64,000 nucleotides of DNA from a virus. Its lineage: Duplodnaviria > Caudoviricetes. Position numbers and translations under genes: made by a program. Positions 8,526 to 59,837 of the stretch are shown piece after piece. Below the pieces are notes generated by a model. The model had not been told where the DNA came from and did not search any database. It saw nothing but the letters and a program-made list of their open reading frames with translations. Each line of letters opens with the position of its first letter. Positions within the stretch are counted from its first letter, which is position 1. The stretch lies in the IMG/VR virus record IMGVR_UViG_3300021426_000067; one strand, written 5' to 3'.

Positions 8526-9392
8526 TTATTCTTCATCATAAAAAATTAACTCATTAGCATAAGGCAAAGACTTTGCCCATTTTATAAAATTATCTTTAGA
8601 AGAATCATCTTTACCGCTCCATTCATTAAGTTTATGATTCATTCTTTGATGACAAATTGTACGAATTACTTCATAATTAGCCGTCCATGTTCTGGTTTGA
8701 AGCCAGCTCTCGGGTAGCCACCGCACAAGTTCTTTCCAATATCTTTTATCTTTTGTTTCAAGATATTTTTGACGAAGAAATTCAAGTTGTTCAATCATAA
8801 AATCAGATAACATCCCAATATCATTACCTGCAAGTTTGCCTGCATATGTTGGGATACTGTAATATATTAAATCAGAATTCATATCATCTGTTTCAAAACA
8901 ATCAAGAGTAATAGGGTTACTTGTTAATTTGTGCATAGTAGAAGTGCTGTTAGCAACTGTTCCTACTTTATATGTATCCATCTATTTCCACCAATATAAA
9001 GGTGCAGTAATATCAACAGATACAAAGATTTGACGTAAGAATTTACGATGTTCTGGTCCACCTTTAATAAGAGTCTGAGCAAGTTTTAAATCATTAGGTC
9101 CAATAAAAGCATTATCTCTATACTGATAATCTTTAGATTCTTTTAAAACTCCTTCTGCAATTAACCAATCGCAATATTTATTTTCTAAATCAAAAAATTC
9201 TTTAGTATCTTCCTATCCATTCCATTCGGGATGATTTTGATAAACCCAAGCATTAGCTACATCAAGAACCCCTTCATCATAATCATCCGTAATATTAAAA
9301 TAACTATCACTTTTATTCCAACTATTTTTAGGGTTTCTCATTCCTCTAATGGCGTGTTCAAAACCCCAGACCTATGTATTTTCAAATTTCAT
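8526..9392 (-). CDS. ThyX-like (flavin-dependent thymidylate synthase-like) phage protein; TAG read-through
   Basis: MKFENT*VWGFEHAIRGMRNP, EHRKFLRQI, APLYWWK*MDTYKVGT, STMHK, HKLNEW in one frame. Confidence 0.75.
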
Positions 9393-9395
9393 ATT

Positions 9396-9656
9396 TTAAT
9401 CTCCTAAATTTGTTTTTATCGTAATAGAATTATTAGATATATCACTGCCATTAATAGTATATGGATTATTTGAATCTGCTTTAATGGTAGTGGTAGTAAG
9501 TGGAGTGGTAATAACTGAAGGGGAAGAACAAGTCCACCAATGCGAATAATTTCCGCGGTTATATCCTTCCCAATAACTTTCATTTAAAAGCTACTCTAAT
9601 TCTTTTTTTGTTAATTCTATTTTTCCATTTTTATTTAATGTAAATACTTTAATCAT
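9396..9656 (-). CDS. Hypothetical protein (86 aa); TAG read-through
   Basis: MIKVFTLNKNGKIELTKKELE*LLNESYWEGY; coupled to the upstream TGA. Confidence 0.7.
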
Positions 9657-10579
9657 AATGTGTTATTTCCTTTCGTTGAATTATAGCCAAATTTATTACT
9701 TTGATACATGTCTATCCAGAATTTTTCTTTTTCATTTAATAAATTTCTCTAATGGATTTGTTCTAATAATTCAAAAGAAAAGTTCCAAACACCATATTTT
9801 TGCATAGCATTATAAAGTTTATTTGTTGCGGATGCGTCAATTCCTAAACCACATTTACAATGTTGTTTCCAGCGGTCAGCAACGTTCACGCTTTGACCTA
9901 TATAAGCCTATTCTGTTAATAAATTTGTAATTTTATAAATACCACAAACAGATTCTTTTCCTAAAACTCTATCACATAATTCATTCATTTGCTTTTGAAA
10001 ATATTGTGTCCAGATTAATTTACTTAAAATAACTGGTTTATGTAAAGTTGATTTTAAATTTTCTAAAACTTTAACATCTGACAAATCAGTTTCATTAATA
10101 AATAATTTATAAAAATTTATTTTTTCTTTTTTTTCTTGCTCGCGGAGACGAGCTTCAACACCCGCGCTTAAAGAAGATCTTATTTTATCTATTTCCGCCT
10201 GTATTTCCATTTTCTATTTTTTTGCTGATTCTCTAATATTATTTAAATCAGTATGAATCTGAGTTATTTCAGCATATGCCGCATTATTAGCTTGTTGTAT
10301 TTTAATATCAAAAATTTCTTTTCTTGCGGCTAAATCTTCATCAATTCTATTTTTCTATTTTTCAAATTGCTATTCAATAGATTTAATTTGTTCTTGTTTA
10401 GATGTAATTGTTGCTGATAAGTTTAAATTTTGGTTAGCTAATTGATTTGTCTATTCAGCTAATTTCTAATTATATTGCTATTGCTATTCATTTTTTTGTA
10501 GTATTGTTCGTTGTCCTTTAAAAAAAAGGAAACAACCAATAATAAATAAAATAACACTAAGAAAATTTACTACTATCAT
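9653..10579 (-). CDS. Membrane-anchored coiled-coil protein with C-terminal GIY-YIG nuclease; TAG read-through
   Basis: N-terminal hydrophobic helix, coiled coil, CGIYKITN...AYIGQS..RWKQH, FGYN; 9 in-frame TAG. Confidence 0.8.
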
Positions 10580-10600
10580 ATTTTCTCCATATAAAAACAA

Positions 10601-11158: not shown

Positions 11159-13117
11159 TCAGTTTTCAAGGTAATGCTTTATGAAGTCTGCTTCTGATAG
11201 GATTGGTATACCTCGTTGTTTAGCTGCATTATTCTTAGCTGAATTACTATTTACATCATTGTTAATAAGTAAATCAGTTTTTCCTGTAATAGAACTTCCA
11301 ACTTTTCCGCCAGCTTTTTCAATAATAGATTTTAATTTGTCTCTATTTTTAAAATTTGTAAGTTTTCCAGTAATAACAATAATTTTTCCTTGTAAATTAC
11401 TATTTATTAAAGTGTTGTTTACAACAGGGGTTTCAATAATTAAAATTTTAGAAATTCTATCAGCTTCAGAATAATCAAAAGTTTTTAAGAAATTATCCAT
11501 TTCTATGCCGAAATTAGGTAAGTCATAAAAATGATATTCCTTATCTTTTACAGCATTACGGAAATCTTCATAAGTTTTAAATTCTTTAGCTAAATCTGCT
11601 GCAACTGTTTTTCCGATAAAAGGAATACCGATAGCAGAAATAAACGCATTAAGAGTTGTATGTTTATGTTCTTCTATTGATGCAAGAATTTTGTCAACAG
11701 ATTTAGTACCAAAGCCACTTTTATTAATCCATTCATTTCTATGGGCGGCAAGGGTAAAAACATCTTCTATATTATTTACCCAGCCCCAATCAATAAGTTT
11801 TTCAAAAGTTGCTTTTGAAAGTCCTTTTATATCAAGTCCTTTCTTTCCGCAAAAATGGTCAAGTCTATTGATTAACTTACCTCCGCATTGAGGATTAGTA
11901 CAATATAAAACCTCACTATCAATATCTTTTCTTATTTCTGTTGGCTGACCGCAATATGGGCAAATCTTGGGGATTTCAATCATTGGAATATTGTTAGGAT
12001 TATCTTCCTGTGCGCTTTCAACCTGTGGAATAATTTGATTAGCTTTATAAATAAAAACTTTCTGACCAGGATAAGCGCCACCCATAAGCTGTACCATAAC
12101 GCTAATATTATGTAAACTTGCTCTATTACAGATTGCTCCATCAATTTCAATATCTTTATAAATTAAAACAGGAGTAAGCTGTCCAGTTCTTCCCATAGTC
12201 CATTCAATATCTTTGACTTCTGTTTCATAAGATTCATCATAGAATTTATATGCCAAACCGCCCTTGAAGTGGTGGTCTGTGCGGCCTGCCGCCTCATAAT
12301 CTTTAACATTATCATATTTAAATACAACTCCGTCAATAGGGTAGCCTTTCTCTTTTGCTCTATCTTTAATATAAGTTATTGGTATATTAAGAGAATTAGC
12401 TTCTTTAATTTCTTCATCTATAATATAAGGTACTATATTAAAGCCAAGAATTTGTAACCCTATTAATTTAACGAATAATGAAGCCGCCTCTTCTTCTGCT
12501 TCTATTATATCCCAAGCCACAAAAGTTAATTTTCTTTTTTTACATTCTTTTGAATCTAATAATCTTATACTTCCACTTGCAAAATTACGAGGATTTTTAT
12601 AATCTTTTTTAAATGATTCAAAATCTTCATAAGTACAAATAATTTCTCCATCAATGATTAATTCTTTTTTATATTTGATTTCATTAGGGATAGATGAAAT
12701 TACTAAAGCATTATGAGTAACATCTTCCCCTTCTATACCGTTTCCTCTTGTTTCTGCGGAAACCAGTTTTCCATCAACATAGCGTAATGAACAAGTTAAA
12801 CCATCCATTTTTGCCATAGCAATCCATTCATGTCCTTTTATAAAAGATTCTACTTCTTTTATATTTTTTGTTTTATTAAGGGAAAGCATTGGATGATTAT
12901 GTTTAACTTTTTTTAATTCAGAAACTTTTTTAAAATGGATTTTATGAGTAGGAGAATTTTTAAAAAAGAAATCACATTCTTCTTCCAAAGTTTTTAATTC
13001 AAAATAAAGATTATCCCATTCTTCATCTGTCATTGTGGGAGTTCCTTTATCATATTCCTCTGTTGCTTTATTTAATAAAATTGTTAATTCTTTAATTCTT
13101 AAAATTCGTTTATCCAT
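11159..13117 (-). CDS. ligA: NAD-dependent DNA ligase
   Basis: KMDG active site, TRGNG, NPRN, GRTG, Zn finger CPYC..C, C-terminal BRCT. Confidence 0.95.
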   Translation of the reverse strand: MDKRILRIKELTILLNKATEEYDKGTPTMTDEEWDNLYFELKTLEEECDFFFKNSPTHKIHFKKVSELKKVKHNHPMLSLNKTKNIKEVESFIKGHEWIAMAKMDGLTCSLRYVDGKLVSAETRGNGIEGEDVTHNALVISSIPNEIKYKKELIIDGEIICTYEDFESFKKDYKNPRNFASGSIRLLDSKECKKRKLTFVAWDIIEAEEEAASLFVKLIGLQILGFNIVPYIIDEEIKEANSLNIPITYIKDRAKEKGYPIDGVVFKYDNVKDYEAAGRTDHHFKGGLAYKFYDESYETEVKDIEWTMGRTGQLTPVLIYKDIEIDGAICNRASLHNISVMVQLMGGAYPGQKVFIYKANQIIPQVESAQEDNPNNIPMIEIPKICPYCGQPTEIRKDIDSEVLYCTNPQCGGKLINRLDHFCGKKGLDIKGLSKATFEKLIDWGWVNNIEDVFTLAAHRNEWINKSGFGTKSVDKILASIEEHKHTTLNAFISAIGIPFIGKTVAADLAKEFKTYEDFRNAVKDKEYHFYDLPNFGIEMDNFLKTFDYSEADRISKILIIETPVVNNTLINSNLQGKIIVITGKLTNFKNRDKLKSIIEKAGGKVGSSITGKTDLLINNDVNSNSAKNNAAKQRGIPILSEADFIKHYLEN

Positions 13118-13171
13118 TATTTTCTCCTTTTTTTATATAAAAATATTATAACATATTTTTTATAAAAAATC

Positions 13172-13195
13172 AAAAAAGAGGGGCGACCCCTCTTT
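13172..13195 (-). terminator. Intrinsic terminator after gyrA
   Basis: AAAGAGGGG-tcgc-CCCTC followed by a T run on the minus strand. Confidence 0.55.
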
Positions 13196-15539
13196 AAAAT
13201 TTTACAACAGAGGAAATATTAGATTTTATCATAATATTTCCATAACTGGTTCTGGTTAATAAAGGTAAATCTGATGCGGTAATACATATAGAATTAGGCT
13301 GGCCTGTAAGAAGAACTGTATCAGAGTTAGATACGACAAAGGCTCCCGCAATATTTCCATAAACTACGCTTGGTTTATAAATTACAAGACCTTTTCCGCC
13401 ACGTCCTTGTACATTAAATTCTTTAACAGAAGTCTTTTTACCATATCCTTTTGTTGAAAATATAGCAATCTGATCTTTATCAGAAGAGATAGGGAGTCCA
13501 ACAACAACCTCGTCATCTTCATCTAATTTAATAGTTTTTACTCCTGCCGCAACTCTGCCAATAGGATTGACATTTTTACTTTCAAAATGAATTGACATTC
13601 CATTCTTAGTAATAACTAAAATATTTTCTTCATTGATAAATTCTACATTTGCAATAGAATCACCTTCATTAATTTTAATTGCCGCAATTCCCGTACTTCT
13701 TTTTACTTTTGTATATTCTTCAAGATAGGTTTTTTTCATTAAACCTTTTTTAGTAAAGAATACAACATATTTAGCAGTATTGCTTCTGGCAAGAGAGGTG
13801 ATAGCAATAACTTCATCATTTTCATCCATATGAATTAATGTACCCACATGAGTTCCTTTTGAAGCATTTGTTCCAACCGGCACTTCATCTACGATAATTT
13901 TATACATCTTACCTTTTTTAGTAAAAAGAAGAAGATTATCAATAGTATTAGTAGAAATGGTAGACATTACTACATCATCTTTTGTTTTTATGCCTTTCCC
14001 ATTTTTGCGCTGTACCTTAAAAGATTTTGTAGGTACACGTTTAATATCACCAGATTGAGACAATATAACAACGCAATCTTCTGGAACAACTTCTTCAATT
14101 TTTTTCTCTTCAGGTTTGATGTCAATATGAGTTAATTCAGTGCGGCGAGCATCTCCATATTTGTTAACCAGTCCTTGAAGCCGTACTTTAAGAATTCCGA
14201 TTTGCTCATCTCGACTATCTAAAATCTGATTAAGCATAAAAATTTTATCTTTTAAATCTTCGGCTTCTTTTTCTAATTCAACTTTTTCAAGTTTTGCAAG
14301 AGAAGAAAGTCTCATAGCTAAAATTGCTTTAGCTTGATTTTCTGTGAACTGATATTTTTTAATTAATGCTTCTTTTGCGGCAGCCGCACTTTCAGAACTT
14401 TTAATCAGCGCTATAATGTTGTCAATATCTTCGAGTGCCCGCAGTAAACCATTAACAATTTCAAGTCTATCAATAGCTTTGTTTAAATCAAATTGAATTT
14501 CTCTTACAATACAATTAATATTAAAATCAACATAAACTTTGATACAATCTTTAAGATTTAGTTCAGTTGGTACTTTATCAATAAGAGCAACTTGATTATA
14601 ACTAAATGAACTTTGAAGATTTGTTTTTGAAAATAACTTATTTACGATACTGATGGGATTAATTTTTTTATCACATTCAATAACAATTCTAATACCTTTT
14701 TTATTAGATTCGTCACGAATATTCTCAATTCCTTCAATTTCTTTTGAATCAGCAACTTCGCCAATTTCTGCCATTAATCCTTCAACAGTAGTTCCATAAG
14801 GAATCTCAGTAAAGATAATTTTTCGTTTATCAATTTCATACTTACCGCGGACTTTTACACTTCCATGGCCAGTTCTCATAATAGTTGGAATATCTTTTGA
14901 ATTAATAATAATTCCACCCGTAGGAAAATCTGGTCCAGGAAGCATCGGTTCTTCTCCCGCTAAATATTGATTAATTGCGGCAGCTACTTCATTTAAATTA
15001 TGGGGTGCCCATGAGCAAGCCATAGCCACACCAATTCCGCTGTTAGGATTACAAAGTAAATTTGGGAAGATGCTTGGTAATGAAATTGGTTCTTCTGTTG
15101 TTTCATCATAGTTTGGAAGGAAATCAACATTATTTTTCTTTATACCTTGAAGTAATCCATCTTCAGCAAGTTTACTCAATCGACATTCAGTATAACGCAT
15201 GTGAGCAGGTCCATCGCCAATAATATTACCATTATTCCCATGAAAATCAATTAATGGATAACGCATAATCCAATTTTGTGATAACCGCACTAACGCGCCA
15301 TAGATAGATGAATCTCCATGTGGATGATATGTACCCATAATATCACCCACAAGTTTAGCTGCTTTTACATGAGGTTTTTTTGATACACATTTAGTTTTAT
15401 CTTCAGCTCCCCATAAAATGCGTTTAGCAACTGGTTTAAGACCATCTTTAGCATTAGGTATAGCACGGTCAGTATTCACGGCAACCGCATATTCTATAAA
15501 ATTTGTTCCTAATTCTTTTGTTAAATCATTCTGCATCAT
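13194..15539 (-). CDS. gyrA: DNA gyrase / type IIA topoisomerase subunit A
   Basis: DGLKPV, YHPHGDSS, AHMRYTE catalytic Tyr, GPDFPTGG, beta-pinwheel CTD with QRKNGKG. Confidence 0.95.
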   Translation of the reverse strand: MMQNDLTKELGTNFIEYAVAVNTDRAIPNAKDGLKPVAKRILWGAEDKTKCVSKKPHVKAAKLVGDIMGTYHPHGDSSIYGALVRLSQNWIMRYPLIDFHGNNGNIIGDGPAHMRYTECRLSKLAEDGLLQGIKKNNVDFLPNYDETTEEPISLPSIFPNLLCNPNSGIGVAMACSWAPHNLNEVAAAINQYLAGEEPMLPGPDFPTGGIIINSKDIPTIMRTGHGSVKVRGKYEIDKRKIIFTEIPYGTTVEGLMAEIGEVADSKEIEGIENIRDESNKKGIRIVIECDKKINPISIVNKLFSKTNLQSSFSYNQVALIDKVPTELNLKDCIKVYVDFNINCIVREIQFDLNKAIDRLEIVNGLLRALEDIDNIIALIKSSESAAAAKEALIKKYQFTENQAKAILAMRLSSLAKLEKVELEKEAEDLKDKIFMLNQILDSRDEQIGILKVRLQGLVNKYGDARRTELTHIDIKPEEKKIEEVVPEDCVVILSQSGDIKRVPTKSFKVQRKNGKGIKTKDDVVMSTISTNTIDNLLLFTKKGKMYKIIVDEVPVGTNASKGTHVGTLIHMDENDEVIAITSLARSNTAKYVVFFTKKGLMKKTYLEEYTKVKRSTGIAAIKINEGDSIANVEFINEENILVITKNGMSIHFESKNVNPIGRVAAGVKTIKLDEDDEVVVGLPISSDKDQIAIFSTKGYGKKTSVKEFNVQGRGGKGLVIYKPSVVYGNIAGAFVVSNSDTVLLTGQPNSICITASDLPLLTRTSYGNIMIKSNISSVVKF

Positions 15540-15798
15540 TTATAACCTCATAATTTACTTCTAAAGGAGCACCCCAATCTTCTATCCTATAATCATCTAT
15601 AATTAAATCTAAATCGCATAAAAGATCTTCTTCATCAAGAAATTTCATAGAATTTTCTTTTAATCTTTGAAGTTCCTCTTCTGTTAATTCTAAAATACCT
15701 TCTTTATGTCCATAACGTAAATACCCAAAAACATAATCTAATGGAATATTAAATTTTACTTTTATTGTTTTATTCTGCATTATATGTAGCCTCCGCAC
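15526..15798 (-). CDS. Small acidic hypothetical protein between gyrB and gyrA
   Basis: ORF overlaps the gyrB stop and the gyrA start; true start may be the internal MQNK. Confidence 0.6.
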   Translation of the reverse strand: MRRLHIMQNKTIKVKFNIPLDYVFGYLRYGHKEGILELTEEELQRLKENSMKFLDEEDLLCDLDLIIDDYRIEDWGAPLEVNYEVINDAE

Positions 15799-17686
15799 TA
15801 TGTTCTTTAATATATCTTTTTCTTGGCATAACTAAATTACCCATTAAATCATTAAAAAGTTTATTAGCCGCTGTAACATCTTCAACAGTAATTTGTTTAA
15901 TAATTCTGTTATTTGGATCTGTAAGAGTTTCTTCAATCTCTTCAACGTCCATTTCACCAAGACCTTTCATACGACCAATCTGACTTGTTTTTCCCCTATT
16001 TTCTTTTTGAAACTCAGCTAATGCTTCATCATTTTTAAGATATTTATAGCCTTTATTTGCAGCAAGAGTAACTTTATAAAGAGGGGGAACGCCTGCATAA
16101 ACATATCCATCTTTAACTAAATCTGGACAAAAGTTCCATATAAACGTATAGAAAAGATTTTTAATATGTGCTCCGTCAACATCTGCATCTGACATAATAA
16201 TTATCTTACCATATCGGACTTGATGATAATTTACTTTTAAAGTTTTAGGATCAATAGACCAGTCTCCAGGTCCAAAGAAAGCATCACACATTGTCATAAT
16301 TTCTGCATTTTTTTGAATTTGTGCAAAAGTAGCTTTCTGTGTATTAAGGATTTTACCACGAACAGGAATAACTGCCTGAAATTCATTATCACGAGCAAGT
16401 TTTAACATACCTGCCGCACTATCTCCCTCAACGACATAAACTTCACATTTATCTCTTCTTTCAGAATAACAATCCGCAAGTTTAGTGTCAAATTTAAGTG
16501 CTTTTTGTTTCTTTTTATTCTGTTCTCTTGCTTTATCTCTTGCTTTCTTCGCGGCGTCTCGTGCTTTACGTGCGGCAGCCGCCTTCTCAAAAATTAATTT
16601 TACTTCTTTTTCATTATTATTAAACCAAATATTTAAATTTGTGCTTAATGCAGAAGTAAAAGGAGTCATATCAATTTTTGTAACTCTGCTTTTGACCTGG
16701 GCATCATATCCTACATTTGGGGCTGTAATATTAAATACTACATACATTCCCTCTTGAATATCATCACCAGTTAAATTTGCATCTTTTTCTTTTAACCATT
16801 TTTTCTCTTTAAAGAATTTATTAAATTCCCTTGTAATAACAGTTTTAATCTGAGTGATATGTGGTCCAGATTCAGTCAAGCCTGTATTGACATAGGGAAC
16901 AATAGTAGAAGAATAATTGCTTGTATATGTGAAAGCCATATCAAGTTTATTTTTACCTTCTGAAAAATTCATTGAAAAACGATTATCAAGAAGTTCTGCA
17001 TTTTTATTTACAACATTATTTATTAAGTCATGGATACCATTTACAGAAACAAAAATGATTGGTGCTTCATTATTATATTGTAAATTGATAGTTAATCCAG
17101 GGCATAAACTTACAATAGTTTGAAATAAATCTTTAATTTTATTTATTTCGACTTCTGTATGTGTAAAAAATTCTCCTGAAGGTTTCCATTCAACAAGAGT
17201 ACCAGAAACACCTCCCGCACCAGTTGTTCTATTAGAAAAAACACCTTCTTCAAAATATACTTCTTCCCATTGTGAATCTCTCATTGTTTTAACTCTTAAC
17301 CAATGAGAAAGAAAAGTAGTAATTTTAGAACCAATACCAAAAGAACCTAATGAAGTTCCTTCATAAGTTCCATCTTCTCGATATTTACCTGATGTATTTA
17401 ATACACTGAAAGCTGCTTCAAGAATAGTTTTTCCATCTTCTCTAAATGAATTTGGAATAAAACCTTGTCCATAATCTCGGACTGCAACCATATCTCCAAT
17501 TATTGTTACATCAATTTTATTTCCATGTCCAAGTCGATATTCATCAACTGCATTAGAAATAATTTCAACTAACAACTGAGTTGAATATGTACAATCACCG
17601 GCATATACTTGAGGACGAAGTCTTGTAAATTCAAGAGGACTTAAACTTTCAATACTCTCTTCTGTATATAAATGTTTATCGTTCAT
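15770..17686 (-). CDS. gyrB: DNA gyrase / type IIA topoisomerase subunit B
   Basis: EIISNAVDE, VEGDSA, PVRGKILN, SDADVDGAHI, MKGLGEM. Confidence 0.95.
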   Translation of the reverse strand: MNDKHLYTEESIESLSPLEFTRLRPQVYAGDCTYSTQLLVEIISNAVDEYRLGHGNKIDVTIIGDMVAVRDYGQGFIPNSFREDGKTILEAAFSVLNTSGKYREDGTYEGTSLGSFGIGSKITTFLSHWLRVKTMRDSQWEEVYFEEGVFSNRTTGAGGVSGTLVEWKPSGEFFTHTEVEINKIKDLFQTIVSLCPGLTINLQYNNEAPIIFVSVNGIHDLINNVVNKNAELLDNRFSMNFSEGKNKLDMAFTYTSNYSSTIVPYVNTGLTESGPHITQIKTVITREFNKFFKEKKWLKEKDANLTGDDIQEGMYVVFNITAPNVGYDAQVKSRVTKIDMTPFTSALSTNLNIWFNNNEKEVKLIFEKAAAARKARDAAKKARDKAREQNKKKQKALKFDTKLADCYSERRDKCEVYVVEGDSAAGMLKLARDNEFQAVIPVRGKILNTQKATFAQIQKNAEIMTMCDAFFGPGDWSIDPKTLKVNYHQVRYGKIIIMSDADVDGAHIKNLFYTFIWNFCPDLVKDGYVYAGVPPLYKVTLAANKGYKYLKNDEALAEFQKENRGKTSQIGRMKGLGEMDVEEIEETLTDPNNRIIKQITVEDVTAANKLFNDLMGNLVMPRKRYIKEHSAEATYNAE

Positions 17687-17754
17687 ATTTTTTACCTTTC
17701 ATTTTTTATTATATAATAATATTATAACAAATTTTTTTAATTTTAGCAAATTTT

Positions 17755-18258
17755 TTACGAGAGCTTAATCTGAATATGGTTCTTTAATATAAGATTTGAA
17801 AATTTTTGCTTGTCTGCCGCGGCAAGAGCATCAGCCAATTCATTCCCTATAATTCCTTTATGTCCTTCAACTTTGACAATATAAATTTGATTAATGAAAA
17901 ATTTTATATTATAATATTCATATAGGGATAATATAATATCCAGATTTTTTACAGTTTTGTTTTTACTATTCTTCCAGTCATTTTGACTCCAAGAATAAAT
18001 CCAAGAAGTGAGGATATTTATACAATATGCAGAATCAGAATAAATTGTAGCTTGTTCATTTTTATATTTAGAATTTAATAATTCAAATGTTTTTAGAAAT
18101 GCTTTTAATTCCATTTGATTATTTGTTACATTATCAAATTGTTCAGAATAAGCATCAATTAAATTGCGGTTTTCATCAAATATTATTATACCATAGCCGC
18201 CCTTTGAATTATTTTTACCATTCCCGCGACAAGAACCATCTATATAAATATATAACAT
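17755..18258 (-). CDS. rnhA: Ribonuclease HI
   Basis: YIDGSC.GN, TNNQMEL, YSDSAY, VKNLD, KVEGH.G..GNELADALA. Confidence 0.92.
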   Translation of the reverse strand: MLYIYIDGSCRGNGKNNSKGGYGIIIFDENRNLIDAYSEQFDNVTNNQMELKAFLKTFELLNSKYKNEQATIYSDSAYCINILTSWIYSWSQNDWKNSKNKTVKNLDIILSLYEYYNIKFFINQIYIVKVEGHKGIIGNELADALAAADKQKFSNLILKNHIQIKLS

Positions 18259-18331
18259 ATTATAATCTCCTTGATATTTTTATAGTATATTATATAATAA
18301 AATCTTATTTTTGTCAAATAGAGACAAAAAA

Positions 18332-18369
18332 ATAGGTATTTTAATAGCTTTAGCTATTAAAATACCTAT
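18332..18369 (-). terminator. Long perfect hairpin (18-bp arms) terminating the holin gene
   Basis: ATAGGTATTTTAATAGCT-tt-AGCTATTAAAATACCTAT followed by a T run on the minus strand. Confidence 0.65.
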
Positions 18370-18380
18370 ACAGTTTGTTT

Positions 18381-18647
18381 TTATTTTTTAGGCTTTTGAT
18401 ATGTCATAGCCTGGGCACTATCAGTAACTCCTGCTGTTGTAGGGTCATTAAGTGCGTTCCATACTGATACAGCAATTAAACCAAGCACATAGGGATTACT
18501 TAAAGCTCCCATTAAAAGGTTGCCAAGTGCTCCCCAAGTTGTAAGATCTTGAAGAGTTAATCCCGCATATGCGAGAATTGGAGTTAAGATAGCAAGGATA
18601 AGTTGAACAATAAAAACAGGATTTCTAAATCTGACTTTTAGATTCAT
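18381..18647 (-). CDS. Holin (phiLC3-like family)
   Basis: MNLKVRFRNPVF, two hydrophobic segments, DPTTAGVTDSAQAMTY.KPK; GGAGG RBS before the ATG at 18647. Confidence 0.85.
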   Translation of the reverse strand: MNLKVRFRNPVFIVQLILAILTPILAYAGLTLQDLTTWGALGNLLMGALSNPYVLGLIAVSVWNALNDPTTAGVTDSAQAMTYQKPKK

Positions 18648-18732
18648 ATATATACCTCCATTCAACAATAAAAAAACATTCCTTAGAGATTTGATTCTCT
18701 AAGGAATATAAAAAATAGAAGTATATAATTAT

Positions 18733-19227
18733 TCATTTTTGTCCAAAATCCACCATCATCCGCAGTCCTTCTTTACTATTGTATTTAAAGATGTTATCAA
18801 AGCCTTCTTTAAAAGAAGGTTCAACAAGCTGAGTAAACATACGGCGAATAGTGCCTCTGGGGACATATGCGCGAGTTCCTTTGCGTTTTTCATTTCTCTC
18901 TAAACAAGTTTCAAGATCTTCATCAATAAGAACAATATTGAGTTTAGCATATCCTGTAACGTGTTGAATGAACCATTTTCTGGATCTTGGAGTAAGAGAT
19001 GTCTGATCTGCTACAACATGATTTCCTTTAGCAAGATTATCATTAATCTGTTTCCAAAATTCTTTAGTAACTTCATCTTCCCGTGAAAAATAATCCTCAT
19101 CAGGTGATACTAAAGAAAAACGAATTTTATCACGAGAAATTACTGAAACAGCTTGATTAAAATTTTCTTCAATAAAAGTTGATTTTCCTGCGCCAGGACA
19201 ACCACACATTAAGTATAAGTTAGCCAT
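18733..19227 (-). CDS. P-loop kinase (polynucleotide kinase-like, AAA_33)
   Basis: CGCPGAGKST, ISRDKIR, ADQT, CLERNEKR. Confidence 0.8.
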   Translation of the reverse strand: MANLYLMCGCPGAGKSTFIEENFNQAVSVISRDKIRFSLVSPDEDYFSREDEVTKEFWKQINDNLAKGNHVVADQTSLTPRSRKWFIQHVTGYAKLNIVLIDEDLETCLERNEKRKGTRAYVPRGTIRRMFTQLVEPSFKEGFDNIFKYNSKEGLRMMVDFGQK

Positions 19228-19863: not shown

Positions 19864-19936
19864 AGTATGGAAAGAAAATTTTTAAATGAAACTATTGAGG
19901 TTTCTTATTGTTTTTATAAAATGGAGGAAAAATATT

Positions 19937-49189: not shown

Positions 49190-49552
49190 TTATTTGTATT
49201 GATAATCAATATATACATTACTATCTGTTGGTTCAAGAAATTTTATTGAAACAATATGCACATCTTCTAATTCTAACATTCTTGTTTTTCCAATTTGAAA
49301 TATTATAGGATTATCATTAGCATTTTCTTTTATTGCTACATGAGCATATTTATCTGGATCTGAGGGAGGCCAATAAACTCCATTTAAATCAAAATTAAAG
49401 TTCCCAGGATAATGAATTCCTATTTTAGTAATATAGTTTATAGGATTCTTACACTGAGCTTGAATACGTGAAACAACATCTTCTGTAGTTTCAAAAGCAC
49501 CTCCCTAAAAAGGCCCTTGAATCTGACCAAAGAATCCATTAGTTGCCGCCAT
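49190..49552 (-). CDS. Small putative virion protein (paralog of 19937-20218); TAG read-through
   Basis: GAGGAGG RBS; GQIQGPF*GG, KIGIH, IGKTRMLEL, IDYQY. Confidence 0.75.
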
Positions 49553-49570: not shown

Positions 49571-52500
49571 TTATTTAGGTTGAATATTAAAACTTAAAGA
49601 ACCAAATTCAATAGAAACTTCTGCATTTCCTGTTGGACTATTAGGATATGCAGATTTAGTAAATTTTTTCTTTCCACCTGATGTAGTCCATGAGCCATGA
49701 TAAATTTGAAGACTATATCCAAAAGGAGTCATCCATCCATTCACTTGTTTGTCGGCAGTAGCTGTATCTTGTACGGGATCAGCTTGCCCCCAAGAGTTAT
49801 CGCTTCCTGCCAAATATTTACCATTTTGACGAACTTTATAATTAACTCCTCTTACAGTTATTGAAAATTTACTTGTATCTATTGGATTTTGAAAATGAAT
49901 AGTACAATATACCATATTTTTATCATCATTTAAAAATCCATTTACTACAAAATTCCCTTCTAACTTAGGATTAGCTTGTGTTAAAAATGGATGTATATTA
50001 TTATTGATAATATTTGCCCAATCTGAATTGTCTGATTCAAGAATTTTTGACCAACGAGAATTATTTGATTCAAGAATATTAATCCAACGAGAATCATTTG
50101 GAAATTGAACCATATAATTCCAATTTGACCATTCTGAATTATAATAATATCGAGTTGCAATTTTACCATTTCTACTAATAGCAATTTGAACGCAATTGTT
50201 AGCACTTGTTGTAGAACCCGCGTCAAAAATTGAACAAACAATTAATTTAAAATAAATATTAAATGGAGCATTTGCTATTGTTTGTGTTACAGTTTGTCCA
50301 TTATTTGTCCATGACATAGTTCCACCAGTGGCATAATAAGTGCCTGGAATTTTATAGTTATCTAAAGATACTAATATATTGTTTACGGCTTTATCAAAAT
50401 CATAAGTAATTTTCTAACCAGGAGAAGCTAATACTAATCCTTTTTTAGTAATACCTTCTCCCATAACGCGAATATTAATACCGTCAGAAATAATATAAGC
50501 ATCATCTCTATCAATATTTTCTCCAATAATAATTGCATCTGTTGCATTTATTAAATGTTGCATTGTTTCACTTGAACTATACTCATTAAGATTTGTATCA
50601 TTTCGACCTATCACAAAAGCAACTTTTGGATTAATTTTTTCTAAATAATTAGGGTCTGTATGATTTGTATAAGTGTGGTGTTCAAGTTTATAAATGTCTG
50701 GAGTTTTAGTAATTGAATTTGCGATTTGCGCCTGTGCGGCAGGTTCAATATCTCCTGGAGATAAAAAAGTAATATCTCCATGTTTAAATTCAGTTACTAA
50801 AGAAAAGTTATTATATCTTGTTCCCTGATTTATTTTTTCATTATAAGAAGTTACATTATAGTAGTGACTAAATTTTGAACTACAATTTAAAAATCTTACT
50901 GAAAAATGAGGATTATTAATAGCATCAAATACAAAAGTTTGTTCTTCAACAGGATAAGTAATTAAATCTTCATTTTTAAAATACATATTAAGATTGCCTG
51001 AAGTTGACTGTTTAATAGCATTAATCCAACTAATAAGATTATCATGTTGCTCTTTTATTCTACTATATTTATCCATCTCTTCTTCAGTTCCATCAATAAA
51101 TTGATTTTGAGTTGGTAAGGTTGGTAAAAAGAATTTACAATTATTTTTGAAGAGATGCTATACATTTTCTGGGTTTAACAAGGTCTAAAATCCGCCTACA
51201 TGATCTATATGATAATGACTAACAATAACATGAGAAATAGGTGTAATTTGATTATTATCAATAGCTTGTTGAATTTTTGGTATTACATTTTCGATAAAAC
51301 CTTTATTTGAAGCATCTACTAAAATAGTTGTTTGACCACAAGATACAATAAAACAATCTCCTTTAGTTTTAAAATTAGAATAATCAGGGTCTAATTGATT
51401 TGTTCCTTTAAAAGGTAAATAAATTTTCATCTAAGGAAGATTAAGTGTATCAATACTATTTTCAATTTGATTTAATCTTTCTTGCCAATCTATCTGTGCA
51501 GTTGCAGGGCGTTCATTTAAAGAAAAATTTAAAAGAATTGGGTCTACTACCTACACTAAAACAGGAATAGGTTTAGTAAAAGATTCCTCATAAACGCTAA
51601 AGTTATGTGTTGATAAATCCTAAGTATCATCTAAAATATTAAATGTTATTCCAAATAATCCTGTTTCTACTGTTTTTGAAATACGTTCTTCATTTAAATT
51701 TAACCCATTTTCAGGAGTAACTTCTGCTTCATTTCTATAAACTTTAATTTTTCCTCTCATTATATTAGCATCTATTACTAATTTAGAAATTAATTGAGTA
51801 GGAGATGCGGTAAAAGTTAACATTCCATTTGATATAATTCCAGAAGCATGATATCCATTATTAATAGTTGCTGAATCTTCATTTAAATTAAAAAGTTCAG
51901 TTCCAAAAGTACCTATCCAACGCCATTGATCTCTTTCATTAAAAGTAATATTGTCAGTACTTGCGGGTGGATCAAAATGCATTAAGAAATTTCCAGATCC
52001 GTCTACCGCCACTCCATCAATAGAAGTTAAAGGATTAGGAGTTATAATTTGAGGTTTCTCATCTCCTTCCCATTGTACTTCTATTTTTTTATCTGCATTT
52101 AAATTTATAGAAATTGGTCTTTTAAAGAAATTTTCAAAAATATCAATAACAGGATTATTGTTATTATTACTATCTTTTAAATTGTAAGTAATAACTAAAT
52201 TAGTTCCTTGTTTTTCTATATCTTTAATCCATTTTATAGGATTGTTTTCATTTAAAATTTGAGGATTTTCATTGTCATTCCATTTAAGGGAAAATAATCC
52301 TGTATCATTATTTAAAGTTGCAGAATCAATCCAACGTAGCTGAAGTCCGTTTTGACTGGTAATTTTTCTACCTGTGCTAAGTGTAGTTGTTATATTACCC
52401 TCTTGATCTATATCAACAGTTTCTATCCAACCGAATAAGTTAGATTCTTGAGGTAAAGCATTTGTAAAATTTACTTTTATTTTATTAGTTTGTGAATCAA

Positions 52501-53635
52501 CTTCAATATTTCGAATAGAATTTAAATAAAATTTTTCAGTTTCATTTACAATCTGACTTCCGCTATCAGTATCTTGTTCAATTAAAGTATTATATTTAAC
52601 TGTAACTTCACCAGTCTATTTGTTAAAAGATATATCATCTATCCATCTTATAGGGGTTGAATTAATTTGTTCTATATTATTATCATTCCATTGAGTTTGT
52701 AAAAGACCCTCATTAGAAAGAGTCATATCTTTAACCCATTTTATTTTTGTATCAGGGTTTATTACAATCGGACCATCATGAAGATAAGTAATTCTTATAG
52801 AACCATCTTCCTAAAGACTAATATTTTCAATCATATTATAATCGCCAAGATATATTTTTTTAGATTCTCCTTCTTCTGAATTATCATAATTATGATATTC
52901 ATAAATTAAAATTTGTCGATGATTTTCACGATCTTCACGTTGTTTATTGTCTCCATAAGGTTCTACCCCATCATTTTCATCTGCTGTAATAACTTGTAAA
53001 TTTTTAAAACTATCTCCTTTAATACCATTTGGTATATCTAATTGCCATTTTTCATAAAAAGGATGTGAACCATCGTCAATTCGATTAGCTGCAATATCAA
53101 CGTAAGGATCTACTTTCTTAAGTGTAAAATCTATTACAGGATATGGAAAGGTAAATCCAATATAAGCTATTGTATTAGTTTTTGTTTCAGCATCTCTTAA
53201 GGAGCAGCAGTGCCAAGAAATTTCATCATGAAAATCATTTCCCTATTTACCTGGAACTAAACTATGATTAGTTAAAGTATAAGAACCATTACTAAATCTT
53301 GTATCGAATCCCTGATTATCTTTATATTGTTGATATTTTTGTTCAACATCCGCCTCAGTTGTCATCTAAACTTCAGGAGAACCTCCAGCAGGACCAACAA
53401 TTGTTCCTATATATTCCGCGCCACCCTGACTGTTTGTATATTCATAACCGCGACGATAAATTTTACCATTATCTTCGCTATTTTTATCTTGTGTATTAAT
53501 TATAACATATTCATCATAATGCACATCAGTATAGTTTGGTCCTTTTTTAAAATCATCGACCATATCCTGCACAGTTGGAAAATTCTTAATTATGATGAAT
53601 GAGTTACCTGGTCTTCCGCCATAAAAAGAATACAT
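49571..53635 (-). CDS. Large virion protein (1354 aa) with tandem beta repeats, an internal MBL-fold hydrolase and a C-terminal fibre module; TAG read-through
   Basis: Track ORFs 53366, 51620, 51185, 50414 and 49571 are all in frame; SHYHIDH, NNFS, PGD, EHH; LDNYKIPGTYY..WSNW. Confidence 0.78.
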
Positions 53636-53637
53636 AT

Positions 53638-54327
53638 TTAATCCTCCTCTTGAGTATATTCAAAATCTAAAATAAAATAATCAATTAAACTTCTGGGCAC
53701 AAACCCAATATAAGTAATTTTAATTTTATTATTATTAAGTTCATAAATTCCATTTTTACCTAATCGAATTTGTTCTCTATTAATACAAGTTAATAAAGAG
53801 GGTGGACCTTGGATACCTATTTTAGTTAAATATCTTACATTTGAATTATTGGCGGTTAAACGTCCCATTATATTAATTAATTGAGCAAATTCTTTAATTT
53901 CGATTTGAATTTGTCTTGAAGTTTTTCTATAGTCATCCGTAGTTCTTTGTAATTCCCAAACAATTTGATTATAACTATTATTTGGGGCGATTATAATTTC
54001 TAAAGGTACGGTTTCTTCATCCCCTGCACCTATTTCAAATATTTCAATTAATTGTTCATTGTCTTCTGTTGCTTGTGTATCTCGTAATTTTAAACGAATA
54101 ATTTGAATATTATCTACATTTTTCTTAATATTAAAACGAATATAATAACAATTAGTATTATTCATCGTTAAATTACCTTTTAGATTTAAACAAGGATTTG
54201 TGAAAACAACATCATTAACGGCAACAGTAGTTGTAGATTGCGTTCCTATTTCATAATTTGTATTTTCTTCAAAAGGAATAAAATATTGTTCCTATGTAGA
54301 ACGTCTATATTGCCCAATTTTATACAT
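53638..54327 (-). CDS. Structural-module hypothetical protein; TAG read-through
   Basis: ATG at 54327 in frame with the track ORF; C-terminal KIGIQGP...IRLGKNGIYEL...LDFEY resembles the small paralogs. Confidence 0.72.
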
Positions 54328-54347
54328 AATCTCCTTTTTCCTCCTTA

Positions 54348-56402
54348 TTAAATTCTTTCTAATGCTTTCACGCAAGATAAACTCATTGTACCATCAGTGC
54401 CTAATGGTAATGAAATTGAGTTAATCATATAGTCTCCATATATACCTACTTCTAAATTTCTAACAGTAATTCTTACATTCGGTTCTAAATAATAAATTGG
54501 TATCACTGTTAAAGAAATTTGTTCATTATAGCTGGTGTATTGGTAAAGTTCTTTTCTCATTTCTTCATAAGCAGATCTTAAAACTCCTCCATTAGCTAAC
54601 ATAGAATAGGTATCAGGGTCCATTTGAACAAATTCTTGTTTCATATGGATACACTGCTATCTTAACTATGCGACATCTTCATCATCAGTATTTATGATAA
54701 CAATATCTGGATTATCTGGTTCAAATATGCAATTAATTGAGTCATCTACTAAAGTAGTCGTTCTACGACCTATATTATTTACGCTAAATTCTGAAATTGA
54801 ACTTGGAGTATCTATAAAATCTAAAAAGAAATCTATATCGCTCGGTTCGGTAATAACATCACCATAAAATTCTTTTTTAGATATATCATATAATTTAGGC
54901 CACTCATTCTTAAGTTCAGTAAAATAATAATTACTTGTTAATCCTAAGGGTTCACTCGCCACTCCTGATAAATATAACTAAGTTCTATAATCAGTTGATT
55001 CTACTGAAGTTAATTCATAATTAGTCTCTTCGTATTCATTTTTAACTGGATTCCATTTATAAATAGTTTTAGTTTCGTCTGCATAATAATATTGATCAAA
55101 TAATCCCGGCACTGGAAAGTCATCTTTTGTTAAAAATTTAATAGGCGCTTTAGCTGCGGGTTTCATAATTCCATTTTCTGGATCAGTATAAAAAAATATA
55201 TCAGTATAAACATTTCCAGTTTGAGGTTTTTCATCAATAGCTAAATGATATCTAATAGGAATTTCTTGTCCATCTATTGAAATCCTTTTTCCCCATATCA
55301 TAAAATCATTTTTTATTTGCTGATACTGTGGAGCATTGGTGTAAGACTGAATTATATCAGCGCCCTAAAAAGTATATACTGACTTGCCGCCCGCATAATC
55401 AACTAAATAATTGTCGGCATTTATCTAATTAATTTTAAAAGTTGAATATGAAGTATTTAAATAATTCTTTATCTATTGGAATCTAAAATTTCCTTCTATA
55501 TCATAGAAATATTCATAATTTCCTAAAGTATCTTTAATTTGATCTAAAATGGTAACTACTGTATCTCCCGCGTTTCCTATTAATTCTCCAGGATAAGTAA
55601 AATCAGTAAGTATATATCCCACATCTTGCCCATAATTAAAACTTGTAAGATTTTTTTCTATTTCTTCTTGAGTTTTATTTTTAGTAAGTTCATTATAATT
55701 AGTTGAATAACGATAATAAATATTATTATTTTCATTATCAAATTCTTGATATAAATAGATAGGAATAGAACCAGTCCATTTCATTACTTTTTTAATGCGG
55801 TTATCTATATCACTAATAATAATTTTCCCAAGTTGCTAACCGCCAAAATGATTTACTAATTCTTGAATAATTTGATAAATAGTTGGTTCAATAATAATTC
55901 TATCACCATTTACATCTACATCCTACATTTCATGGAATACTACTGATGCGGGGAGGACTCCTCCGCACTATCCATTTAATAAAGCCATTTTATCATGTAA
56001 AGTTAATGAAATATTAATTCCACTTGAATTATAAGTTATATTAGGAGTTACGATAACATATACACCTTGGGGAAACCATAAAATAGGAAATTCTTTATAT
56101 TCATCTGTTGTATTAGTAAAACCTACTAATAATTCAACTTTTTTATTTATACTTAATAAATGTTTTGTGTCAGTTAGATCATTCTAATAAGGGTCTGCTA
56201 CTAAACTAATGTTACCTGTTCTCCGCATACTGGAAGAACCATCTAATGAAAGATTGCCGCCCGTAGCTTTTCCTTGTATCTATTGAATAGGTTGCTAATC
56301 AAAAGTTAGAACGATTAATTTAATAAATTGCTATTTTAATTTAATTTTATCAAAGTTTTTAAGAAAGACGGAATCTTTTAAATATGGAAAATTATGTTTC
56401 AT
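54348..56402 (-). CDS. Baseplate hub / distal tail-type protein, 684 aa; TAG read-through
   Basis: Four track ORFs in frame; LDGSSSMRRT, WFPQG, LGNYEYFYD, IPIYYLEPN, ISLPL. Confidence 0.75.
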
Positions 56403-56403
56403 A

Positions 56404-59277
56404 TTAATAGACCCCCTTTACAACTTGACAAGTATAATTAACAATAGCATTAATTGGATGTAACATTTCTCCAGTTCCATGTTCTCCAACAAAGAAAGGA
56501 TACCAAGCATTATGATAATAAATATATTTATTTGAATTTAAAAATTTTTCTTCAATAATTAAAATAAATTTATCATCAGTCTATTCAACATGTTCTTCAT
56601 CCATTAATAAAATAGGATTAAATCCAGCTCCTATGTCATTTTCATCAATTTCTAAAACTGTTTTAGTAATTTGATAGACTCCATTAGGCATTGGATTTTC
56701 TACTTCATAAAAATTACTATATTCGCCTGCCATAATGGTATATTCTCCTTCTTGAGTTGCGGTAGTATCAGAAGTATCTTGCTTTTGTCTTAAAAGTATT
56801 CCTGAAAAATATAAATCTGTGATTGCCGCATCTTCGTCTCTTAATTGAAGGTATCCATTCTATAAAACATGTCTATCAAAATCATCATCTTTAGAGTCTT
56901 TTATATAGACTATTGTACCAGGCGGCGCTTCAATATCAATCCCATCAACATCAACTAAGTATTGATAAGAAGCATTATATATTTCTCTATATTTATTATA
57001 GATTTTTTTCATTAAAGAATCTTGAGGATTAAAAGTTCCATATAATTGTCCTGGTTTATAATAATTATAAGTAGTTTTAGCTACTTTTGAAACGTCCTCT
57101 TTTTCTTCTAATTTTACTACATAATCAATAGTAGCAGTTACAGGGTATTTAAATTTCAAACTGGTAATATAAGTATTATCTTCTTTTAATTCAAAATATC
57201 CTAAATTTATAATCTAATATGCTGTTTCATCTATATTAGATCTTTTTCTTTCCATTTTAGGGGTAATAAGCATTTCAACCCCATTAATTTCTACTACATA
57301 TCCCATTAAACGTCTTAGTGTAGTAGGGGTTGATGCAGTTATTTGAACTAATTGATTTCCCTGCTCAACAACAACATATGGAGCTGATTCAAAAGTTAAT
57401 TTTAATGAAGTTAATCCTTTTACTTCATTTAAATAACCTTCATTAGCAGAACTACTATATTTATTTGTTAAAATAGTATTTAAAATGTTTCCATCTTCAG
57501 GTTTAAAATTTTTTTGAACTTGACCTAATAATTCATGAGTATATGTAACCTATGCCTAATATTTTCCTACTGTTTGAATACCATATTTTTCACAGTTGCG
57601 GACAGTTACTTCATCTATTTCTACAGCGGTTGCAGTAAAAGAATATAATTTTCTACCTAAAGATTCAACAGGTTGAAAATCAATATTCATCAGTTTAATT
57701 AAAATATTACCTTCTGCCGCAGACCTAAATAATTTTATATTATGTTTATATAAAAATTCATAAACCTTGTCTCTAAACTATTTTTCATAAATAAAATCAT
57801 AGTAATCTGAGATTCCATTCTATTGATTATATGTATCATATAAAGATTTACTTTCTTTATAAATTTCTCTTTTAGAAGTAAATAATTTTAATTCATTTTC
57901 TGAGTTATGAAATTGTCCATCATAAAAATGAGGATCATACCAGTTTGTGGTATCTGATAGAAAAGAAATTAATCCACCAATAGGAAAAGTTCTAAAGTAA
58001 TTGTTTCCATTTCTATTGATATATGGATATTTAGCACCAATAGTAACTTGTTGAGATTCTGTAACATTATATTTAAATTCATTTAAAGAAGGATTAAATT
58101 TAATACATAATTGTTCATTTTCTCTTGTTAAGAAAATATCTTCAAATTCACATATTGCAAAATTTGAAAATATAGTTTGTCCGCGGGCGCCATATGTATT
58201 TCGTCTATGAGCGCAGTAGCGATACCAGACTCCACTTTCGATTGTAAAATCTTGCCACTATAAATCTAATGTTTCTTCATTTATATATACTATTGTTTTA
58301 ACATCTTCCCATTTCTTAAAGTCACTTTTAGAAGAAGTTCTTCTAATAGTTAAGTTTCCCATAAACCCTTGACCTTCTGTTTTGGACTTTATATTAATTA
58401 CCATTGTTCCATTTTCTTTATTTGGAGAAGCGGTAATATCTGCATTTAATGGGTCAGCGCCTTCATCTATTATTATAAATTGATATTTTTTAGTTTCTGT
58501 GTATAGATTATTTGTGGTGTATTTAAATTTCATTATATAATGTACACCTTCTACGAAATCATATAATACCTAATAATTAATTTCGTTTGGATTATGCGGA
58601 TTCGTATAAATCTAATCACTTTCCCAAAGGGGTGTTTCAGGATCCTAATTATTATACAGTTTTATTTGATAACTTTTTAAACATTCTTTATCATTAGGAT
58701 CTGCAAAAACGACTGAACCAATAATATCAGTTAAAGATGTTGACAAGGTAGTTTCTTGGAAATCAGCATTTAAATCTCTATTATCATCAAGACCTTTTAA
58801 AACAAGGGTTGGACTTGATATTGCTTTTACTAAACAAACTTTAGACCATTCTGAAAAGTTATCTTGATTTTCTTTTAACCAAACCGCATCACCTTTTTCT
58901 GAATTATAGCTCTCTTTACAAAATCTTAATTGAGCTTTATAAAATTGATTTAATCCAAAAAAAGTCTAATTTGATCCATCATTTTTTAAATCTGATAAAT
59001 TTATTGAAACAAAATATTTATAATCATTAGTTGAATCATTAATAGTTGCTTCTTCCCAAGAAACATTCACAATTTTTGTCCCAGTTGGCCAGCTTTCAAG
59101 ATTTAATACTGAAGCGTTTGTCTTTAAATCAATTAAAGATATTTGAACAGATTTTATATCACTACTTTTATTAAAAGAAGATAATCCAAAATAAATATCA
59201 CAACTTCCAGTATTTTTAAAGGCAGGCTGTGTATCATATACTATGGGAGGATAAAGATTATTAAATATATTACTCAT
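56404..59277 (-). CDS. Large structural (baseplate-region) protein, 957 aa; TAG read-through
   Basis: Three track ORFs in frame; NLYPP, FSEWS, KLFRSAAEGN, LGRKLYSF. Confidence 0.72.
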
Positions 59278-59336
59278 TATAACAGCCTCCTTTTTTTCTA
59301 TTTTTCATATATGTATCTCCTTTTTTCTCCTTAGCC

Positions 59337-59837
59337 TTATTTATAACTCATAACATCTTTTCCGCCTTCTTGCGGTGCTTGTTTAGGAAGGGCACGTAAC
59401 TCTTCCATAAAACCCTATATAAAAGAATTTCCGCCTTCATCTGTATAATGTTGATAACGTCTTTCTAAACAATCAAGACTGAAATCATCAATCCAACCTA
59501 CATAATAGCAGAAATAGTGGTGATCTCTTGTAATATATGCTTTTATTGCATCTTTATCAGATTGAATAAGCATATCAATTTTGTCTGATAATTTACATAA
59601 AACGTCATCAGTTACCTGTTGATCTTTTTGTAGAGATTCCATTATGGTACTTCCTTGACGAAGACGTCTTTCTAATTCTTCTTTTGAATTTATTTTTGAA
59701 TATTCTTTATCGAAAAATTTTCTTATATAAGTATACCCCCAATCAAAGAAAGTAAGTAAACTCTTTACCGCTAAGGCTAAAAAAACAATAAAAATAAGAA
59801 TTTCCTATAAAGAATAATGTTCAAGTAATTCTACCAT
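59337..59837 (-). CDS. Single-TM membrane protein (holin-like / lysis accessory); TAG read-through
   Basis: GGAGG RBS; N-terminal hydrophobic helix, coiled coil, Y..EGGNSFI*GFMEELRALP. Confidence 0.65.

Follow-up and report, generated by a model that had tools for sequence, protein, structure and literature searches.

In-frame TAG codons of a large phage are most likely read as glutamate

We consider here a stretch of 64,000 nucleotides from a tailed phage (Duplodnaviria; Caudoviricetes; IMG/VR record IMGVR_UViG_3300021426_000067), called the window throughout, and the meaning of the TAG codons that lie in frame within many of its genes. An earlier reading of this DNA from its letters, the sequence-only reading, had proposed that TAG encodes glutamate (Glu) in this phage rather than glutamine (Gln). 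The window has a G+C content of ~30% and two divergent gene blocks. Public contigs identical to it bring the phage genome to ~138 kb; contig NODE_96, 100% identical to the window across a 12,375-base overlap, reaches the packaging module, and locus L058 lies on a contig 100% identical to window positions 50092-64000. The complete contig measures 137,851 bases, and samples behind ENA assemblies ERZ12302818, ERZ12302851 and ERZ28613016 contain the phage. A megablast search with 8.5 kb gave no hit among GenBank phages, and exact matching of the window end to viral and metagenome contigs gave none either. The virion genes are of the SPbeta Yom/Yon type.

TAG in the genes of the window

TAG is a sense codon in this phage. 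In-frame TAG codons number 147, spread over 19 of the 34 large open reading frames (ORFs) tallied, and no TAA or TGA stands in frame inside the long conserved reading frames. The 33 complete ORFs are terminated by TAA (27) or TGA (6), never by TAG. Under translation table 11 many long genes of the window are broken; with TAG as a sense codon their fragments fuse to full length, giving a tape measure protein of 2823 amino acids (aa) and proteins of 1622, 1354, 957 and 684 aa, and the GH25-CHAP-SH3 endolysin and the RuvC-like, RecJ-like, Sak4 and GIY-YIG genes are likewise intact. The genes in question are the following.

3-1520 (-), RecJ-like DHH/DHHA1 gene, five in-frame TAG; open at the window start
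1587-5843 (-), replication genes without TAG (PARG-like, a 364-aa protein, DnaB helicase, a 170-aa protein; Pfam names from public gene calls)
5933-6982 (-), Sak4/AAA_24 gene, four TAG
8526-9392 (-), phrog_6721 gene, three TAG
9653-10600 (-), GIY-YIG domain gene, nine TAG
11159-19227 (-), five large ORFs without TAG, including NAD-dependent DNA ligase at 11159-13117
19886-20218 (+), small gene with GQVVGPFEAG, paralogue of 49190-49552
20250-28721 (+), the 2823-aa tape measure protein, 44 TAG
29043-33911 (+), the 1622-aa late protein, 18 TAG
34123-34611 (+), RuvC-like resolvase (DUF3882/RuvC), nine TAG, five GAA, no GAG
36085-36612, 37694-38155, 38166-38699, 39060-42686, 42736-43314 and 43334-44875 (+), late genes, one to three TAG each
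36907-37683 (+), a gene without TAG within the late block 36085-44875
47564-49138 (+), endolysin with GH25, CHAP and SH3_3 domains, six TAG
49190-49552 (-), small gene with GQIQGPF-TAG-GG, its TAG at 49505
49571-53635 (-), the 1354-aa tail protein, ten TAG
53638-54375 (-), a 245-aa protein, one TAG
54348-56402 (-), the 684-aa hub/baseplate protein, 13 TAG
56404-59277 (-), the 957-aa tail protein, 12 TAG
59337-59837 (-), a 166-aa protein, two TAG

One might suppose that these codons are not translated at all, the genes being broken or rarely read through, although only the role that table 11 formally gives to TAG speaks for this. So many TAG codons without a single TAA or TGA within long conserved frames of essential virion genes, and a TAG pattern common to dozens of related contigs, at differing positions, leave this idea with practically no probability.

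The details on which the sequence-only reading had built were largely confirmed. At each position for which it had quoted a peptide (9372, 8982, 48341, 48416, 1470, 6485, 55836, 55473, 54978, 59415 and 49505) an in-frame TAG is present within that peptide; the two small genes are a real paralogous pair, with Glu or TAG at the quoted site as it had noted, and the codon counts that it gave for the RuvC-like gene (TAG present nine times, GAG absent) are correct. Its 'ThyX-like' label for the gene at 8526-9392 must be dropped, as this is a phrog_6721 gene with no Pfam match.

The amino acid at TAG positions

Relatives were fetched with two proteins of the window, 57 loci through the hub protein and 36 through Sak4. 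Window proteins were compared with them by tblastn with X at every TAG, a letter that favours no residue, and the subject codon opposite each window codon was read. Opposite TAG the relatives carry Glu at a frequency of.355, aspartate (Asp) at.103 and Gln at.031; opposite GAA they carry Glu at.364 and Asp at.131, and opposite CAA they carry Gln at.318. Since the frequency of Glu opposite TAG is close to that opposite GAA, the TAG profile is GAA-like and not CAA-like. A site test took as references the 32 TAG-free relatives without in-frame stops and gave each site a weight of one; across 95 TAG sites the best fit was Glu, with Gln lower by 26.2, Asp by 33.7 and lysine (Lys) by 47.6 nats, and Glu was best in 2000 of 2000 site bootstraps. 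Six columns were strongly conserved, one residue making up 80% or more among no fewer than 8 references, and in all six that residue was Glu. A two-component model applied to a 77-site set estimated the proportion of Gln-like sites at 0.00, values up to 0.18 having approximate support. TAG thus evolves as a Glu codon in this phage, and the comparison of TAG columns with those at GAR and CAR codons, which the sequence-only reading had proposed, decided for its claim of Glu over Gln.

Individual columns give the same picture. At the Sak4 TAG at 6485 (residue 166) the column holds GAA 32 times, GAG twice and TAG twice, and the residue is Glu in 14 of 14 TAG-free relatives; at the TAG at 8982 in the phrog_6721 gene (residue 137) it holds 19 GAA, three GAG and four TAG, with Glu in all ten standard-code references. 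The TAG codons at hub residues 36, 189, 310 and 475 stand opposite Glu in 17 of 18, 17 of 18, 18 of 18 and 13 of 16 standard-code relatives, respectively. For all of these, the argument that family motifs typically have Glu where this phage has TAG proved sound, the columns being nearly invariant for Glu; it failed for the TAG at 1470 in the RecJ-like gene and for that at 9372, which fall in variable columns. At the TAG of RecJ residue 291 the column holds only GAA or TAG among the relatives.

The terminase, which contains ten TAG codons, adds a presumed functional site. Its motif GGLME-TAG-CVLIDG corresponds to GLIDE-VILVDG in the cultured Enterococcus phage H1, GLIEE-VILVDG in Geobacillus phage E3, GLVEE-VILVDG in Alicyclobacillus phage KKP_3916 and TLEE in Phass-1. 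We take this motif to be the terminase Walker B motif, with its second acidic residue as the catalytic base. Sequence searches with the terminase gave no PDB or Pfam match, and the presumed Walker B assignment rests on the order of motifs (a Walker-A-like RAYSKS, then hhhh-[DE]-E, then a coupling-type ITTAG motif) and on how the sequence aligns with annotated terminases of cultured phages. In 78 IMG/VR relatives the column of this TAG holds GAA (36), GAG (32) and TAG (10), and nothing else. Among the TAG-free relatives, all 32 have Glu at terminase columns 290 and 321, and 31 of the 32 have it at column 240. Opposite the TAG codons of the packaging contig, the three cultured standard-code phages have Glu at a frequency of.36, equal to that opposite GAA/GAG. 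In 42 related contigs whose terminase carries three or more TAG, these codons occupy 416 positions; the majority residue of TAG-free relatives is Glu at 335 of them, Asp at 53 and Gln at six. For the RuvC-like protein and the endolysin, the PDB offered no usable match by which catalytic residues could be placed, and the candidate catalytic Glu residues of the RuvC-like protein are encoded by ordinary GAA.

A method of this kind could conceivably return Glu for reasons of composition. The same procedure, applied to each recoded relative against the standard-code ones, assigned Glu to 14 loci, Gln to 11 and, for in-frame TGA, tryptophan (Trp) to eight. Phass-1, which was published as a TAG-to-Gln phage (PMC10607447), also came out as Gln. 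As these controls return Gln, Trp and Glu, the method can tell Gln from Glu, and composition does not explain the Glu call.

These results bear directly on the simplest alternative, that the phage uses the ordinary code 15 and reads TAG as Gln in the manner of the crAss-like, Lak and Phass-1 phages. TAG-to-Gln is the only TAG reassignment reported for phages, the public gene calls of this very contig translate TAG as Gln, and a few TAG sites do align with Gln. Yet Gln falls 26 nats short and won no bootstrap, TAG occupies invariant Glu columns including the Walker-B-like one of the terminase, true Gln-type relatives and Phass-1 do come out as Gln by the method, and the suppressor tRNA described below has neither U1-A72 nor G73; we regard this alternative as very improbable. 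In the public protein collection, the entries for this phage are translated with Gln at TAG ('with_TAG=Q'; L081, L083), so that Glu residues of the phage, the one at the Walker-B-like site among them, have probably been deposited as Gln.

A few points weigh against reading TAG as Glu. The identity of the amino acid comes from conservation only. Some TAG sites stand in columns rich in Gln or Lys (RuvC residue 21, GIY-YIG residues 77 and 231, Sak4 residue 9), as do true GAA sites. Taking the conservation evidence together, we hold it highly probable that TAG means Glu in this phage.

A candidate glutamate-inserting tRNA

The tRNA with a CUA anticodon, which the sequence-only reading had asked to be found and inspected, exists. 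It lies a short way past the window; the U1-A72 pair is missing, and its long D loop resembles that of the family's tRNA-Glu(UUC). The features that matter here are these.

61697-63557 (-), first nine genes of a phage tRNA array of ~30 genes, which continues beyond the window
62271-62345, tRNA-Gln(UUG), with U1-A72 and G73
L058:4190-4263 (about window-equivalent 67347-67420), tRNA(CUA), 3.3 kb past the window end, with tRNA-Glu(UUC) and tRNA-Glu(CUC) just beyond it

The tRNA(CUA) of the window genome has C1-G72, G2.U71, C3-G70 and A73, and a D helix of G10-C25, U11-A24, C12-G23 and G13.A22. Seven distinct tRNA(CUA) family members were taken from Glu-type phages; they form a cloverleaf in which 10 of 20 pairs show compensatory changes. 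Their pair 1-72 is C-G in five, G-C in one and G.U in one, never U-A; G2.U71 and A73 are each present in six of the seven, and U8, G10-C25, U11-A24 and a mismatched 13-22 pair recur. The D loop has 9 nucleotides (nt), AGYGGYYYA, like the tRNA-Glu(UUC) genes of relatives, which also carry a mismatched 13-22 pair (A13.A22). The tRNA-Glu(CUC) of the window genome likewise has C1-G72, G2.U71 and A73. The tRNA-Gln genes of the family, in contrast, all have U1-A72 or A1-U72 and a D loop mostly of 7 nt (7-9 overall), and tRNA(CUA) is without the U1-A72 of tRNA-Gln and without the G2-C71, G3-C70 and G73 that mark substrates of glutaminyl-tRNA synthetase (GlnRS). The identity set of glutamyl-tRNA synthetase (GluRS) in E. 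coli includes U11-A24 and the 13-22 pair (PMC9976931), and both U11-A24 and a non-Watson-Crick 13-22 pair are present in tRNA(CUA). Bacterial GatCAB selects its substrate by U1-A72, whereas G1-C72 and an additional base in the D loop lead it to reject tRNA-Glu (PMC2811023; PMC9976931).

From these features we propose that UAG is decoded as Glu through the phage's own tRNA(CUA) from the array, which host GluRS would charge with Glu. The non-discriminating GluRS of bacteria without GlnRS discriminates poorly at anticodon position 36. With C1-G72 instead of U1-A72 and extra bases in the D loop, tRNA(CUA) should be accepted by neither GatCAB nor GlnRS; because these features would bar both, no amidation would follow and Glu would stay Glu. 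Genes for a GluRS/GlnRS-type synthetase or a class-I release factor were looked for in five near-complete Glu-type relatives, and none was found. The explanation as a whole, a phage reading UAG as Glu through its own tRNA(CUA), most likely charged by host GluRS and left unamidated, seems to us very likely.

Several features of the tRNA do not sit easily with this route. The variable loop of tRNA(CUA) has 5 nt (GGAAC), so that the missing-residue-47 determinant of E. coli GluRS is absent; a variable loop of 4 nt occurs only in the second Glu-type lineage (L075). The pairs 1-72 and 2-71 are unlike those of E. coli tRNA-Glu (G1-C72 and U2-A71, weak determinants). Overall similarity does not group tRNA(CUA) with tRNA-Glu, the best scores outside its own family going to Leu, Gln, Lys and Glu tRNAs at 0.70-0.72, and similarities to some tRNA-Gln(UUG) genes of relatives are seen in its acceptor and T arms. 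The host-GluRS route is plausible but stays an inference, given that overall similarity ties tRNA(CUA) to no tRNA-Glu, that the variable loop is of 5 nt rather than the 4 of tRNA-Glu, and that the biochemistry is predicted only.

An ambiguous decoding also needs to be weighed, in which a glutamylated tRNA(CUA) is partly amidated, or partly charged otherwise, and a mixture of Glu and Gln (or Glu and Lys) is inserted. Mischarging is frequent among amber suppressor tRNAs, there is some enrichment of TAG opposite CAG codons of close relatives, and in a published screen 28 of 29 phage CUA tRNAs tested in E. coli extract gave Gln. Against such a mixture, the best estimate of the Gln-like fraction is zero with an upper bound near 0.18, TAG is tolerated at the presumed catalytic Glu and at other invariant Glu columns, and tRNA(CUA) lacks the GatCAB determinants, so that we judge it quite unlikely. 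The sequence-only reading had itself suggested a tRNA glutamylated by GluRS and not, or only partly, converted by GatCAB; the tRNA features fit the absence of conversion, the Glu/Gln mix is not required, and the charging step is one we would place with host GluRS on the grounds given above.

The Gln-type relatives carry suppressors of another make. Two suppressor families of theirs that parse cleanly combine U1-A72 with a long variable arm. We note that the Gln-type CUA suppressors at L062:8465-8563, L063:2259-2357, L065:1866-1964 and L066:10681-10771 have U1-A72, CCA and a type-II-like variable arm of 20-28 nt, that three of the four are miscalled by ARAGORN as having a 4-base anticodon, and that the L066 suppressor is closest in overall similarity to the family's tRNA-Ser (0.73), yet the alignments of that phage give Gln. 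A Glu-type relative has, near its tRNA(CUA), a tRNA with anticodon UUA, which would read TAA (L022:2389-2463 = L070:2898-2972); its aligned genes contain no in-frame TAA, and TAA is the usual stop.

Other observations concern the surroundings of the array. Adjoining it, at 60092-61636 (-), is a gene for a DUF2828/DUF7788 vWA protein, richer in G+C and without TAG. The stretch at 63895-63990 (-) resembles a tRNA in its canonical T arm (GGTTCGAGTCC) and acceptor-like 3' end; its cloverleaf is incomplete, and it goes uncalled by ARAGORN and Rfam. Within the array region just past the window, L058:1005-1895 encodes a sigma-70 family protein (regions 1.2, 2, 3 and 4), which may be a regulator of later phage transcription.

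Host, sister codes and known reassignments

The relatives of the hub gene (window 54348-56402; L001-L057) use four codes, namely the standard one, TAG as Glu, TAG as Gln and TGA as Trp. A midpoint-rooted FastTree phylogeny of the hub and the adjacent tail protein places the window inside the main Glu-type clade of 17 tips, the window counted among them, and a second Glu-type pair (L026, L028) beside one Gln-type locus; Gln-type loci form at least three groups and Trp-type loci two, with standard-code loci interleaved with the others. On this tail-gene tree UAG as Glu occurs at least twice, but the number of switches is only indicative because tail genes recombine.

Terminases of cultured phages infecting Enterococcus, Geobacillus, Alicyclobacillus, Lactococcus and Bacillus share 31-46% identity with that of this phage, and the Phass-1 terminase shares 44.5%; on this basis the host is almost certainly a Firmicute, and the GH25/CHAP/SH3_3 endolysin points to a Gram-positive host. 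Sample and metagenome-assembled genome (MAG) labels, the sole basis here, suggest that the environment may be the rumen.

The distribution of TAG among the genes of the window is highly uneven. Ten replication genes (1587-5843, 7026-8015, 11159-19227) contain 293 GAA/GAG codons and no TAG, and elsewhere in the window TAG makes up ~16% of Glu-type codons; by simple arithmetic the chance of such a TAG-free ten-gene block is about 1e-22. (Within this block, 1587-2375 (-) encodes a PF10021, microbial poly(ADP-ribose) glycohydrolase-like, domain.) From this avoidance we argue that the host stops at TAG. The TAG-free replication genes would then be readable by a naive host, and the virion and lysis genes and several DNA-metabolism genes would need the suppressor. 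The partition fits the published idea that a naive host can translate the early genes, whereas the later ones depend on the suppressor (Borges et al.). It counts against such a timing role that TAG is not confined to late genes, being present in the RecJ, Sak4, phrog_6721 and GIY-YIG genes.

Alternatively, the code might be the host's own, a bacterial lineage reading TAG as Glu that the phage merely matches, much as code-25 phages match code-25 hosts (Borges et al.). This view has to contend with the phage's possession of its own tRNA(CUA), with the full avoidance of TAG in the ten replication genes and with a tree on which Glu-type phages are interspersed with standard-code, Gln-type and Trp-type ones. 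When 185,579 species genomes were scanned for such a tRNA, the only match was a phage-tRNA-array-like contig of 3.3 kb binned in a rumen Ruminococcus MAG. We consider it unlikely that the host shares the code, and prefer a standard-code host in which the phage would bring its own suppressor. Since the strict tRNA(CUA) pattern matched only three viral contigs, prevalence was judged from terminase loci.

Borges et al. observed only TAG-to-Gln and TGA-to-Trp, later work on phage recoding assumes Gln for TAG, and in 2025 a screen that covered 162 phage CUA tRNAs yielded Gln, one Ala and one Tyr pair. The sequence-only reading knew UAG as Glu from no phage, and our full-text literature search likewise found no report of UAG-to-Glu in phages or bacteria. 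The code-15 phages (crAss-like, Lak, Garnet and others, and Phass-1) resemble this phage in having TAG concentrated in virion and lysis genes, TAG-free early genes, their own tRNA(CUA), no synthetase and presumed standard-code hosts; they differ in that TAG is Gln there and Glu here, and in that the present suppressor lacks tRNA-Gln acceptor features. Phass-1 is a relative of this phage by its terminase and nevertheless tests as Gln.

UAG stands for Glu in some eukaryotic nuclear codes, NCBI tables 30 (Peritrich) and 31 (Blastocrithidia), in which UAA is Glu as well. Those codes operate genome-wide in a cell, whereas here TAA is the main stop and the change is viral and probably stage-specific. 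Engineered E. coli tRNA-Glu amber suppressors insert Glu but tended to be mischarged with Gln by GlnRS; unlike them, the present tRNA(CUA) is natural and conserved across a phage clade. The indirect Gln-tRNA pathway of non-discriminating GluRS and GatCAB would provide a one-step route between the two codes, as a CUA tRNA charged by GluRS would give Gln if accepted by GatCAB (U1-A72, short D loop) and Glu otherwise. The suppressors of sister phages agree with this, those of the Gln type having U1-A72 and those of the Glu type lacking it.

On these grounds it is likely that a clade of large Firmicutes phages uses a code undescribed in any virus or bacterium, with UAG as Glu and UAA and UGA as stops, that a change of the acceptor end and D loop may have ended amidation, and that the family switches codes repeatedly. 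Phage recoding has so far been described as only TAG-to-Gln or TGA-to-Trp, and tools (table 15, prodigal-gv and the like) hard-code Gln, which here would be wrong at about 1% of residues, including the presumed catalytic Glu of the terminase. With a third reassignment, susceptibility to synthetases would no longer suffice to explain which amino acid phages assign to UAG. The tRNA(CUA) is a candidate natural Glu-inserting amber suppressor, and the difference between sister Gln- and Glu-type lineages at the GatCAB determinants of their suppressors may be a natural, testable switch between two codes, in a family whose four interleaved codes would make it a natural system for studies of code switching.

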